Shown here piece by piece: positions 28,593 to 38,511 of a DNA stretch of 47,571 nucleotides. This DNA comes from Paludibacter sp. GTDB taxonomy: Bacteria; Bacteroidota; Bacteroidia; Bacteroidales; Paludibacteraceae. The number at the start of each line of letters is the position of its first letter. The stretch's first letter is position 1. Under the pieces are notes generated by a model, which did not search any database, was not told the origin of the DNA, and was given only the letters and a program-made list of their open reading frames with translations. A program made the position numbers and the translations under genes. The stretch is taken from positions 1-47,571 of the forward strand of contig JAURYY010000080.1 in the NCBI GenBank assembly GCA_030653695.1, given 5' to 3'.

Positions 28593-29183
28593 ATGAATAC
28601 AAAACTTCAAGAACTTACCGATAAAATTTATTTCGAAGGAGTAGAAAAGGGCAACGAAGAAGCAAAAGCTATAGTGGAAAAGGCTGAAGCCGAAGCCGTA
28701 GAAATAAAGGCGGAGGCTCAGGTTCAGGCACAGAGAATAGTTGCGGAGGCTCAGGCAAAGTCGGTTGAACTAACTAAAAATACTCATTCTGAGTTGAAAC
28801 TTTTTGCACAGCAATCAGTCAATGCCCTGAAAACCGAAATAACAGATTTAATTTGCGGTTCCATTGTTTCAGCATCGGTTAAAGTAGCCACTACCGATAA
28901 GGCATTTATGCAAAAAACCATACTTGCATTAGTTCAGGATTGGGGGAAAAATCAGTCGATTACCATCGAAGCAAAAGATGCAAAAGCGTTAACCGATTAT
29001 TTTATGACTAACGCAAAAGAATTGTTGAATAAAGGAGTGAAAATTTCCGAGGCGAATGGAATAAAAGCCGATTTTGTAATTGTGCCGGAGAAAGAAGGTT
29101 ATAAAATTACTTTTGGCGATGATGAATTTATTGCTTATTTTAAAGAATTTCTGCGTCCCAAATTAGTGGAAATGCTGTTCTGA
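28593..29183 (+). CDS. ntpE: V/A-type ATPase subunit E
   Basis: KLQELTDKIY.EGVEKG.EEA coiled coil and FLRPKL..MLF. First gene of the operon, with TAAATTTG at 28548-28555. Confidence 0.88.
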   Translation: MNTKLQELTDKIYFEGVEKGNEEAKAIVEKAEAEAVEIKAEAQVQAQRIVAEAQAKSVELTKNTHSELKLFAQQSVNALKTEITDLICGSIVSASVKVATTDKAFMQKTILALVQDWGKNQSITIEAKDAKALTDYFMTNAKELLNKGVKISEANGIKADFVIVPEKEGYKITFGDDEFIAYFKEFLRPKLVEMLF

Positions 29184-29186
29184 GAA

Positions 29187-29224
29187 GAGGTAAGAATCCA
29201 GATAGCTATCGGGAGAGGTAAGAA
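29187..29224. repeat. Palindrome copy (TCCAGATAGCTATCGGGA, 29197-29214) flanked by 10-bp direct repeats GAGGTAAGAA
   Basis: Read directly. Confidence 0.9.
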
Positions 29225-29320
29225 AGTGAATAAACACGTCTCACAAATTGGAACCTTTCCCGAGATACTTTAAACGGCAAACCTCAAAACTTTCGAACAC
29301 GAAACCCTGATCAATGCTTG

Positions 29321-29357
29321 TCCCGGATTGTTCCGATAAATCGGAAATTTATAGGGA
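29321..29357. repeat. Variant palindrome TTCCGATAAATCGGAA (29331-29346) within degenerate outer arms TCCCG...ATAGGGA
   Basis: Read directly; near-identical arms with a 2-nt core. Confidence 0.6.
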
Positions 29358-29388
29358 GAATTCGAAATGCCAAAACACAAAACAATCG

Positions 29389-34945: not shown

Positions 34946-35536
34946 ATGTCTGATGTTGTGAAATTTAATGAAATAGAAAGCAAAATAATTACTTTTCGTA
35001 ATCAAAAAGTGCTTTTAGACTTTGATGTGGCAGAGCTTTACGGAGTTGAAACCAAGCGTGTGAACGAAGCAGTAAAGAACAATCCTGAGAAATTTCCTTA
35101 TGGATATGTAATTGAATGAAGTGAATCTGAGTTTTCAGATTTGCGGTCGAAAATTTCGACCGCAAAAATATCGAAAACGCGAACAGTGCCAAAAGCATTT
35201 ACAGAAAAAGGTCTTTATATGCTGGCAACAATTCTGAAAAGCAAAATAGCTACAGAAACCACTATCGGAATCATCGAAACGTTTACAAAACTAAGGGCAT
35301 TTACACAAACTGTTTCACAACTAATTGAAACTAAAGAAGAAAAAGTTCAAAAAACATTACTGAAGCAAAGCAGTGAATTAATTTCTGAAATACTTGGCAA
35401 CGATAAAGATATTGCTGAAACTGAAACAACTATTGAATTAAATTTGGCGGTACTTAAATTCAAACATACTATTAAAAGGAAAAACAATAATGATGAGGTT
35501 CACGAAGAGGTACCAATTTATATAAAAATCAAATAA
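34946..35536 (+). pseudogene. ORF6N (KilA-N-like) DNA-binding domain protein with an internal TGA
   Basis: Manual translation MSDVVKFNEIESKIITFRNQKVLLDFDVAELYGVETKRVNEAVKNNPEKFPYGYVIE*SESEFSDLRSK...PKAFTEKGLYMLATILKS, with the stop at 35117-35119. Confidence 0.88.
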
Positions 35537-35571
35537 TTAAGTCTTTATTTAATAGAAAAAGACAAATATTT

Positions 35572-36177
35572 ATGGCATTACAATTTCAATATAATAAAAC
35601 GGCATTACAATCTTTAGAAAAAAATCTGAAGATGCGTGTTCGTGCTTTGCCTACCATTAAAAATAAAGAAAGTGCATTGCGAATGGAAGTAAAACGCGCC
35701 AAAGATGACATTCTGAAATTAGAACAGGAGTTGGAACAGCGCATAGCAGCTTACGACAAAATGCTGGCTTTGTGGGGTGAGTTTGATACATCGCTTTTGC
35801 AAGTGGAAGATGTAAAGATGAGCATAAAAAAAATTGCCAGTGTTCGTATTCCCGTATTGGATGAAGTTGTTTATAAAACCAAACTTTTCAGTTTATTCAA
35901 TTCGCCTAAATGGTTTGCCGATGGAATTACACTAATCAAAGAGCTGGCACAGATAGGCATTGAACAGGAATTCTCAGTACAAAAAATGAATTTACTTGAG
36001 CATGCCCGTAAAAAGACAACTCAAAAAGTGAATCTGTTCGAGAAAGTGCAAATTCCGGGATACGAAGATGCTATACGTAAAATTAAACGATTTATGGAAG
36101 ATGAAGAAAATCTTTCAAAATCGTCTCAGAAAATTGTGAAATCGCGTCAGGAAAAATTGAAGGAGGCTGAATTATGA
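35572..36177 (+). CDS. ntpD: V/A-type ATPase subunit D
   Basis: Motifs RALPTIKNKE and RKTTQKVNLFEKVQIP. Confidence 0.95.
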   Translation: MALQFQYNKTALQSLEKNLKMRVRALPTIKNKESALRMEVKRAKDDILKLEQELEQRIAAYDKMLALWGEFDTSLLQVEDVKMSIKKIASVRIPVLDEVVYKTKLFSLFNSPKWFADGITLIKELAQIGIEQEFSVQKMNLLEHARKKTTQKVNLFEKVQIPGYEDAIRKIKRFMEDEENLSKSSQKIVKSRQEKLKEAEL

Positions 36178-38009
36178 TAGTGAAAATGAAACGCTATTCA
36201 TTTTTGGTGTATCACCGGCAATACACTGAATTTCTTGAAAAACTCAGGGAAACAGGAGTGTTACACGTGATTGAGAAACCTGAAGGAATTGCTGAAAACG
36301 ATGCTTTGCGTGACAAAATGCAGTTAGCAGCCAGGGTAAAAACAGCAATTAAACATATTGAAAAGTTGATTCCAAAAGGAGTGATTCCAAAAACGGAAAA
36401 TACTTCTGATAATGGTTTGGAATTGCTGATTAATATTGAAAATAAATTTGCAGCTAAAGAATTATTGGAACAAAAGCTGCAGCTTGCCGAACGTGACCGC
36501 GATCGCATGGAAGTTTGGGGCAGATTCAGTCTCGAAAGGTTACAAAATTTAAAAGATGCTGGTTTTGTGTTGACCTTTTTTAGTTGTAATCTTCGAAAGT
36601 TCGATCAGGAATGGGAAGTACTTTATAATGCGTTTGAGATTGATACTGTTGGAACTACCCGTTATTTTATTACTATAACTCAACTTGGCGAAGCTGTTGA
36701 CATAGATGCAGATCCTGTGAAACTTTCATCTAAAACAGCCGAACAACTTGACATTGAAATTATTTCATTGCGAGAAACTATAGAAAAAGAAAAATCAGAT
36801 TTGATCAATTTGGCTGTCGACAACAAATTTGGTTTGAAAGACTTTCAGGCTAAGGTGATGAGCGAAATTGATTTTTCGAATGTAATATTGAACACTCAAG
36901 CTGAAGCCGATGAAAAAGTGATGTTGCTCGAAGGCTGGTGTCCCGAAGAATCTGAAACTCTATTGAACGGATATCTCGAAGCATCGGGTATTTACTACGA
37001 AACTGCCCAGCCTACCGAAGGTGATAAGGTGCCTGTTAAGCTTAAAAATAATGCTTTTGCCAAATTATACGAAATGATCGGCGAATTGTATGATATGCCC
37101 AATTATCACGAAATTGATTTAACTCCTTTCTTTGCACCTTTTTATATGCTCTTTTTCGGGTTATGTCTGGGAGATGCAGGATATGGTTTTATTTTGGTGT
37201 TAATAGCAATTTTTGCACGCAGAAAAGTAAAACCCGCGTTGAAACCAATTTTATCTTTAGTGGCATGGTTGGGTGGTGCCACTGTAATTCTGGGAACGGT
37301 AAGTGGAACCTTTTTTGGTTATAACCTTTTAGAGTCTGAAATATCCTGGCTCGAAACAATAAAAGTTTTTATGCTTAATTCCGATCAATTATTTTACACG
37401 GCATTAATTATTGGTGTAGTACAAATAATGTTTGGCATGATACTCAAAGCTGTAGGTAAAGTTCGCCGTTTTGGTTTTGCGAACTCTCTTTCAACCTGGG
37501 GCTGGATAATAGTTTTATTAGGATGCGGAGGAGCTTATGCGCTTTCAAATTTTGCGGGACTTCAGCCCGAAATTGCGAAATGGACTTATATGGTTACAGG
37601 AGGAATTGGCGGACTTTTAATATTTGTTTTAAATAATATTAAACGTAATCCATTAATAAATATAGGAGCTGGTTTGTGGGATACTTACAATATGGCAACG
37701 GGATTATTGGGTGATGTTTTATCATATATCCGATTGTTTGCATTAGGAATTTCAGGAGCTGTTATGGGTTTTGTATTTAATGATCTGGCAATTCAACTAA
37801 GTGGTGATATACCGGTTTTAAGTCCGCTGATAATGATTTTAATTATGCTCTTAGGACACAGCATCAATATATTTATGTCAGGATTAAGTGCATTTGTGCA
37901 TCCCATGCGTTTAACATTTGTCGAATTTTATAAAAACTCAGGATTTGAAGGAGGTGGGAAAAAATACAAACCATTTTCGAAATATAAAGAAAAAGAGTCT
38001 CTGTTTTAA
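36174..38009 (+). CDS. ntpI: V/A-type ATPase subunit I (a)
   Basis: Motifs P.Y.E.D.TP, FFG.CLGDAGYG, DVLSYIRLFALG and HPMRLTFVEF. Confidence 0.96.
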   Translation: MIVKMKRYSFLVYHRQYTEFLEKLRETGVLHVIEKPEGIAENDALRDKMQLAARVKTAIKHIEKLIPKGVIPKTENTSDNGLELLINIENKFAAKELLEQKLQLAERDRDRMEVWGRFSLERLQNLKDAGFVLTFFSCNLRKFDQEWEVLYNAFEIDTVGTTRYFITITQLGEAVDIDADPVKLSSKTAEQLDIEIISLRETIEKEKSDLINLAVDNKFGLKDFQAKVMSEIDFSNVILNTQAEADEKVMLLEGWCPEESETLLNGYLEASGIYYETAQPTEGDKVPVKLKNNAFAKLYEMIGELYDMPNYHEIDLTPFFAPFYMLFFGLCLGDAGYGFILVLIAIFARRKVKPALKPILSLVAWLGGATVILGTVSGTFFGYNLLESEISWLETIKVFMLNSDQLFYTALIIGVVQIMFGMILKAVGKVRRFGFANSLSTWGWIIVLLGCGGAYALSNFAGLQPEIAKWTYMVTGGIGGLLIFVLNNIKRNPLINIGAGLWDTYNMATGLLGDVLSYIRLFALGISGAVMGFVFNDLAIQLSGDIPVLSPLIMILIMLLGHSINIFMSGLSAFVHPMRLTFVEFYKNSGFEGGGKKYKPFSKYKEKESLF

Positions 38010-38064
38010 AAAATTGAAATAAAAAAAAGTAATAAATAATAAAAACAAAATTAAAAACAAAATT

Positions 38065-38511
38065 ATGGAACCAATTATTTTGGCTTATATCGGAATCGGT
38101 TTAATGGTTGGATTAGCCGGCGTAGGAAGTGCATTCGGGGTAACAATTACAGGAAATGCAGCTATCGGAGCATTGAAAAAAAATGCCGATGCATTTGGTA
38201 ACTATATGGTATTGAGTGCCCTTCCAGGTACTCAGGGATTGTACGGTTTCCTTGGTTATTTTTTATTAGCAAGCAAATTAACCCCTGATATGACTTGGGG
38301 AGCAGCAGCAGCCGTTTTCGGAGCAAGTATTGCCTTAGCCCTCACAGGGTTATTTTCTGCCATTCGTCAGGGACAGGTTTGTGCCAACGGTATTGCCGGT
38401 ATCGGCTCAGGTTACGATGTGTTTGGAAAAACATTGATTTTAGCTGTTTTCCCCGAATTGTATGCTATTGTTTCATTAGCAGCAGTTTTTATGATCGGAA
38501 ACGCCATCTAA
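38065..38511 (+). CDS. ntpK: V/A-type ATPase subunit K (c, four TM)
   Basis: Motifs [16 protein letters not shown] and PELYAI. Confidence 0.95.

Follow-up and report, generated by a model that had tools for sequence, protein, structure and literature searches.

Guest genes at three junctions of a Paludibacter V-ATPase operon, and a predicted self-operator within ORF6N genes

We analysed a V-type ATPase (V-ATPase) operon of Paludibacter sp. in which guest genes lie between subunit genes at three successive junctions. The operon occupies positions 28,593 to 38,511 of the window, by which we mean the whole stretch of 47,571 nucleotides under study (GenBank assembly GCA_030653695.1, contig JAURYY010000080.1, positions 1 to 47,571, forward strand). 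An earlier note, made from the letters alone, had read the gene order as E, spacer, DUF2764, ORF6N, A, partner plus AbiEii, B, ORF6N, D, I and K, and our annotation reproduces this order. The DUF2764 gene is the likely subunit C, and the occupied junctions are accordingly called C-A, A-B and B-D.

The operon and its guests

The features of the region are as follows, in window coordinates.

28593..29183, + strand: V-ATPase subunit E (weak PF01991 match, PRK01558 below cut-off; supported by operon position)
29184..29388, no strand: E-C spacer, 205 bp, geneless; REP-like palindrome at about 29196-29213 between 11-nt direct repeats, and micro-repeat remnants
29389..30228, + strand: DUF2764, likely subunit C (PF10962, 1.6e-81; weak vATP-synt_AC39)
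30255..30755, + strand: guest 1, ORF6N-1 pseudogene (TAA at 30363)
30437..30463, no strand: in-frame palindrome of ORF6N-1, predicted self-operator (13-1-13 nt, 92% complementary)
30790..30826, no strand: heptamer/octamer micro-repeat ahead of A, also present at empty junctions
30834..32588, + strand: V-ATPase subunit A (family matches)
32593..32925, + strand: guest 2a, conserved AbiEii partner (DUF6922-like lead, no AbiEi match)
32929..33585, + strand: guest 2b, AbiEii nucleotidyltransferase, open frame (PF08843, 2.5e-13)
33595..34911, + strand: V-ATPase subunit B (family matches)
34946..35536, + strand: guest 3, ORF6N-2 pseudogene (TGA at 35117)
35140..35166, no strand: perfect in-frame palindrome of ORF6N-2, predicted self-operator (13-1-13 nt)
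35572..36177, + strand: V-ATPase subunit D (family match)
36174..38009, + strand: V-ATPase subunit I (family match)
38065..38511, + strand: V-ATPase subunit K (family match)
38531..38562, + strand: terminator-like hairpin 3' of K, the sole long one in the region (hairpin scan)

Most of what the earlier note had said of the guests' setting holds. Every gene is on the + strand, and the packing is tight, with gaps around the guests of 26, 78, 4, 3, 9, 34 and 35 bp. The guests, judged AT-richer by eye, have a GC content of 0.27-0.32 against 0.36-0.43 for the subunits (third codon positions, 0.16-0.26 against 0.30-0.37), which places them at the 1st to 10th percentile among the 1,865 long open reading frames (ORFs) of the genome. 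A family scan of the operon genes found no integrase or transposase, and terminal repeats are likewise absent, since the longest direct or inverted border match of each insert measures 6-9 nt against a shuffle 95th percentile of 9-10 nt. The three inserts therefore carry neither of the marks by which an integrative element, insertion sequence or cassette is recognised, namely its own integrase or transposase, and terminal repeats or a target duplication.

Both ORF6N guests match the PF10543 and PDC-S05 models, and neither retains an intact reading frame. The in-frame stops (TAA at 30363, TGA at 35117) had been overlooked in the earlier note. Run X1, from which this DNA may derive, has also been assembled separately; there both stops are unchanged, and the operon lies in one contig and differs from that of the window at only eight places, all in I. 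An alternative genetic code was considered and rejected, because the two stops are of different kinds and the subunit genes themselves end in TAA, TAG and TGA.

The A-B guest resembles AbiE type IV toxin-antitoxin systems in having an AbiEii nucleotidyltransferase, recognised also by PADLOC, behind a conserved upstream partner. It differs in that this partner has no Pfam, PADLOC or NCBIfam match to an AbiEi-family antitoxin, its lead being an Atlas link to clusters in which 10-13% of the members carry DUF6922, and in that the 4-bp gap ahead of it leaves no room for a promoter of its own. Judged by these matches, the guest is a member of AbiE at the domain level, with a partner that is not AbiEi. 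The window protein is only 45-52% identical to its 14 homologues in the genus, none of which lies at an A-B junction and which often stand near other genes that look, from their sequences, toxin-antitoxin-like. A homologue of the partner adjoins AbiEii at 13 of these 14 loci (tblastn), so the two genes form a conserved module.

Scans for signals within the operon added little. A sigma-70 search was at chance level (38 hits against 35.9), and an Rfam scan of positions 27000-40000 gave one match, also at chance level. A Bacteroidetes -7 motif occurs before E (28548) and inside ORF6N-2 (35439), and in none of the stretches ahead of the guests. Elsewhere in the window, ORF fragments at the contig start (2-1099), 27 kb from the operon, resemble an IS110-type transposase by eye, and a tRNA-His (13717-13791) has no adjacent integrase-like ORF.

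Occupancy and exchange of guests among relatives

Subunit A was found in 54 of 102 genomes of the genus; 53 of these were compared, together with five from other families, with one genome per species and an insert of at least 500 bp called a guest. Two rows were left out, B-D of L035 (a gap of Ns) and I-K of L043 (a mis-called K), where L numbers are our labels for loci and G numbers those for genomes. Within the genus, guests occupy C-A in 3 of 49 genomes, A-B in 12 of 51 and B-D in 31 of 47, and never E-C (0/47), D-I (0/48) or I-K (0/44). The C-A guests are ORF6N genes. At A-B stand RAYT-like genes in six genomes (sub-threshold NF047646 matches), a zeta-like ATPase paired with a 49-aa protein in five and the AbiEii pair in one, the window; at B-D we find ORF6N in 26 and a four-helix-bundle gene in five. 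Occupants thus vary among relatives, with five guest families over three junctions, as the earlier note had expected. For example, L023, the nearest relative by subunit A (96%), has the zeta-like pair at A-B in place of the AbiEii of the window, and only the window has three guests among the 42 fully scored genomes. The zeta-like guest protein is 100% identical at the A-B junction of two species, in L347 (G055, outside the scored operons) and L346 (G113).

The suggestion that conserved operons in general are colonised in this way is not supported, because none of 1,069 ribosomal-operon junctions in the 53 genomes reaches 300 bp. In most other families of the order the V-ATPase operon is contiguous, as the earlier note had stated: in the 29 top-scoring operons that belong to other genera, a long A-B junction occurs once in 28 scored cases and a long B-D junction in none of 26. 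Within the sampling of these two controls, the permissive state is confined to this one operon and this genus. A general preference of ORF6N genes for co-oriented runs was also considered and found no support (14/19 and 25/48, against a background of 68%, or 1,037/1,535).

Spread by recombination in the flanking genes, proposed previously, has direct sequence evidence in mosaic tracts and in one tree rejection. L030 and L031, with a host distance of 0.369, are 90-100% identical from C through D, guests included (97.1% and 94.7%). Outside this tract identity is 70-79% in E and 40-67% in I after the first segment compared, and L030 resembles its host neighbour L003 in E only. Similarly, L016 and L045 share a four-helix-bundle insert that is 99.6% identical, and the closest host of L045, L047, carries ORF6N. 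Transferred tracts reach kilobases into core genes, and by the approximately unbiased (AU) test the B-D insert tree rejects the host clade L002/L003/L030 (p-AU 0.014). Since a C-to-D tract with both of its guests recurs at 90-100% identity in distant species, homologous recombination in the ATPase genes on either side is the likely means by which guests are exchanged.

Decay is also frequent. Broken ORF6N copies make up 7 of 26 at B-D and all three at C-A. Deletion scars in L032 (B-D) and L025 (C-A) fuse an upstream palindrome to the internal one, and remnants persist at empty sites, with a palindrome and 3' remnant in L001 and a RAYT-type repeat in L002. Hence the idea that a pool of genes colonises the junctions stands as far as the variety of occupants goes, but the B-D ORF6N gene is a long-term resident (26/47) and several empty sites are scars.

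Short repeats at the borders had been suspected of marking or moving the three inserts. The repeat before A is real, but it is not tied to the guest, being present in 19 of 46 empty as well as 3 of 3 occupied C-A junctions, and the suspicion is unsupported given that the border matches also lie within those of shuffled sequence. The same type of repeat flanks a four-helix-bundle gene in L344. Genes of that family (L316-L345; 7-14 matches per genome) carry their own short tandem repeat upstream and its reverse complement downstream, and they lie in co-oriented runs with mirrored heptamer arrays in 28 of 28 scorable cases, although several of these loci are orthologous and not independent, and the ORF limit in scoring runs was 100 aa for them against 120 aa in the background. 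The RAYT-like genes at A-B (L006, L026, L027, L030, L031, L035) have REP-type repeats of their own on either side, and distant hosts carry near-identical copies; in L006, L026 and L035 repeat copies are inserted in frame inside the gene. Border repeats exceed chance for the four-helix-bundle guests (14-25 nt) and for four of five scored RAYT-like guests (10-11 nt). The REP-like palindrome of the E-C spacer has 330 copies in the genome against 0.3 expected; it also occurs at C-A of L023, and its eight intergenic copies in the window (1772, 9954, 12126, 20093, 24084, 29201, 42578 and 45961) are often nested in heptamer arrays. Neither the micro-repeats nor the REP-type repeats mark the three inserts of the window; both are features of other guest families.

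One further observation concerns a flanking gene. Subunit I of L030, L031, L005 and L003 is of strongly divergent types (40-60% DNA identity in places), with recombination breakpoints near its 5' end.

A palindrome in ORF6N genes and the helix predicted to read it

The in-frame palindromes of the two window genes are a family trait. Among 204 distinct ORF6N domains from genus, genome-wide and viral loci (11 partial domains and duplicates left out), 200 have an in-frame palindrome with at least 8 of 10 pairs. The mean is 9.2 pairs against 4.5 after synonymous recoding, a comparison that favours the observed value in that the centre is the best in the region, and the palindrome is thus conserved beyond the constraint of the protein. 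It is read in two frames, in 149 and 51 genes.

Its sequence varies together with one helix of the encoded protein. With the four domains of fewer than 8 pairs left out, mutual information over 95 protein columns ranks helix columns 41 and 38 at the top for half-site positions -4 and -5 (z of 7.0 and 5.8 at -4, and of 5.7 and 5.2 at -5, the next column reaching 0.5 and 1.8). At -7 and -8 the top column is 37, and at -3 it is 45. Where column 41 is glutamate, position -4 is G in 140 of 142 half-sites in one frame and 42 of 42 in the other; where it is glutamine, -4 is A in 118 of 120 and in 30 of 30, respectively. Lysine or arginine is mostly paired with G at -5. These pairings fit the commonly cited contacts of Gln with A, Arg or Lys with G, and Glu with C. 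Five of six mixed clusters follow the code, as do the helix and palindrome of ORF6N-2. In ORF6N-1 the codon for model column 41, the helix position that follows operator specificity, is the one hit by the stop at 30363.

The structure model places a helix at residues 25-32 followed by one at 36-45, and a homodimer is predicted with a score of 0.76 (best control, 0.01), with runs that agree in 84% of contacts and pLDDT of at least 71; 20 of 30 solved pairs score at or above the mark for a dimer, as does 1 of 23 single chains. Matches to solved structures are weak at best. A PDB sequence search with the ORF6N alignment gave nothing below E 0.24, and Foldseek gave nothing at E 0.001; the DNA-binding domain of pSK1 Par matches the model with Z 5.3 (root-mean-square deviation 2.3, 53 residues aligned). 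Taken together, the covariation and the predicted dimer make it likely that the palindrome is a self-encoded operator. Repressors with operators inside coding sequences, and roadblocks, are known from lac O2 and HK022 Roi. The ORF6N site would resemble these as a coding-sequence palindrome read by a helix-turn-helix-like dimer, here a predicted one, but it encodes part of the protein that reads it and varies with the helix of that protein across the family.

An upstream copy of the palindrome (at least 13 of 16 positions) accompanies 13 of 139 ORF6N genes, with one artefact at a contig edge left out, and is absent from the two in the window (9 and 10 of 16). A regulon of ORF6N-2 was considered and set aside. 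Throughout the genome, the 16-nt site of ORF6N-2 occurs once perfectly and five more times with at most two mismatches, counts for which no chance expectation was computed. ORF6N genes often form neighbouring pairs with differing palindromes and helices (L065, L066, L078-L080, L082-L084, L086, L087 and G000:C170, the last in the genome of the window), and genes with a KilA-N domain adjoin them in L066, L079 and L088. Among the papers listed, we found no report of the palindrome by title or abstract start, in a literature search short of most subscription journals.

Interpretation and alternatives

In our preferred explanation, to which we give a probability of roughly 0.72, C-A, A-B and B-D are single-gene slots whose guests are exchanged by homologous recombination in the flanking genes, and an ORF6N dimer probably binds the predicted operator inside its own gene. 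A rare first insertion would place one gene or a pair, without a promoter, after a stop codon, where it could ride on the operon transcript. The long conserved flanks A, B and D would then allow the guest's spread, its replacement or its loss. By occupying its own gene, an intact ORF6N protein would lower its own expression; it could also be polar on the downstream subunits, and the gene is often inactivated, as here. The window marks the extreme: each of the three slots has an occupant, and two of the occupants are decaying genes. It is possible, although we regard this more tentatively, that ORF6N genes are in general self-regulating, promoter-less operon riders in which gene and operator diversify as a unit under the residue-base code, with the throttling of downstream host genes by intact copies driving decay and replacement.

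Several observations weigh against the slot explanation. Four of the five host clades were not rejected in the AU tests (p 0.051-0.46), and chimeric contigs could mimic a transferred tract in a sample with one genome per species and many fragmented assemblies. For the inserts of the window itself there is no close donor or recombination tract (best flank identities 75-91%), so their history has to be read from relatives. On a host tree of ribosomal proteins (five genus genomes without an rplB match and one order genome left out), A-B states change 11 times, about as often as with shuffled labels (11.6), and B-D states 10 times against 17.1, and are thus structured by clade. By this comparison A-B turns over fast, which speaks for exchange, and the B-D ORF6N gene is an old, partly inherited resident with replacements. 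Intact copies of that gene are under purifying selection (dN/dS, the ratio of nonsynonymous to synonymous rates, 0.13 over 22 pairs; B gene, 0.022). As for the operator, one mixed cluster, L022, is discordant, with an upstream copy that does fit the code; tests on independent pairs were underpowered, with 2-4 supported pairs per trait, nearly all in the predicted direction and none significant; and fold matches are weak, the best being winged-helix DNA-binding domains at Z 6.9 (root-mean-square deviation 2.9, 83 aligned).

The history at B-D might suggest that the V-ATPase operon has domesticated this ORF6N gene as a regulator passed on vertically, and that the other inserts are incidental. 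Such a gene would be found in many genomes (here 26 of 47), structured by clade and under selection, and the earlier note had said that the same genes at the same junctions with congruent trees would mark stable operon members, a description that this guest partly fits. Its distances also track those of the hosts (Spearman 0.56, 17 taxa), and the predicted site lies upstream of D-I-K. However, the gene is broken in 7 of 26 cases, replaced by a four-helix-bundle gene in five, and absent from 16 of 47 genomes and from all 26 scored operons of other families, and members of the ORF6N family stand beside many unrelated genes and in viral contigs, so that domestication is in our judgement highly unlikely as the whole account. 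Insertion of the guests by dedicated machinery acting on micro-repeats, REP elements or ORF6N palindromes, for instance a RAYT in trans, would fit the above-chance border repeats and mirrored arrays of the other families, the 28 of 28 co-oriented runs, and the deletions that join palindrome copies. It sits poorly with the three window inserts, whose borders lack above-chance repeats, with a micro-repeat that is at home in 19 of 46 empty junctions, and with transferred tracts that span kilobases of core genes. We consider it distinctly unlikely here, and dedicated machinery may instead account for the first insertions of some families, not for the guests of the window.

Two further readings were weighed. 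The ORF6N palindrome could be an mRNA hairpin or a template-switch quasi-palindrome, with the covariation reflecting linkage between a helix and a palindrome that, some 90 nt from each other, can travel as one, and the non-significant independent-pairs tests leave room for this. Nevertheless, the columns between the two do not rank for -4 and -5, the code holds in both reading frames across about 23 frame changes on the tree, a 1-nt centre and A-A mismatches suit RNA pairing poorly, and five of six mixed clusters obey the code; linkage or a hairpin is thus an unlikely source of the pattern. The interleaving might also have arisen in assembly or binning, since the draft genome is in 383 contigs and the AbiEii pair occurs at A-B in 1 of 51 genomes. 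Yet the junctions are tight and coherent, orthologous inserts occupy C-A and B-D in relatives, and the separate X1 assembly spans the operon in one contig, which makes an artefact barely credible.

The slot explanation has a counterpart in known systems. Oliveira et al. 2017 (PMC5635113) describe hotspots of horizontal transfer between core genes that lack mobile elements, with recombination and incongruence in the flanking conserved genes, and state that new genes rarely integrate within operons. As in the hotspots described there, different acquired genes occupy one interval (three families at A-B, two at B-D) with no integrase, and the flanks show recombination and, for one of five host clades, incongruence. 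Unlike those hotspots, the slots lie inside one operon, at three successive junctions with one or two genes each, and they appear across species of a genus where the published ones are compared among strains of a species. We read the slots as an intra-operon, single-gene version of the known core-flanked hotspots.

Other guests and relatives of guests invite comparison as well. Both ORF6N guests match the PADLOC candidate PDC-S05, but both window copies are broken. One PDC-S05 member is reported to cut plating of T7, T5 and T4 (10.1101/2024.09.26.614923); that member had a Virulence_RhuM domain, and the match of the ORF6N guests is therefore no demonstration of defence. RAYTs are described as vertically inherited (10.1101/2021.07.10.451892), whereas the RAYT-like gene here moved between species within a recombination tract. 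RAYT/REP systems and the four-helix-bundle family (TIGR02436; for heptamer repeats compare PMC4679880) are alternative occupants of the same junctions in relatives, with REP-like or heptamer repeats at their borders; in the operon of the window the genes themselves are absent and only repeat remnants remain.

The transferred tracts and scars show how genes that lack any mobility enzyme can survive and be replaced within a conserved operon of energy metabolism, where insertion is considered rare. Tolerance of such genes depends on the operon and the lineage. Such junctions may be mined for new toxin-antitoxin and defence candidates. For ORF6N, a widespread family without an assigned function, the predicted helix-palindrome code offers a testable handle, and the family may constitute a natural set of orthogonal repressor-operator pairs.

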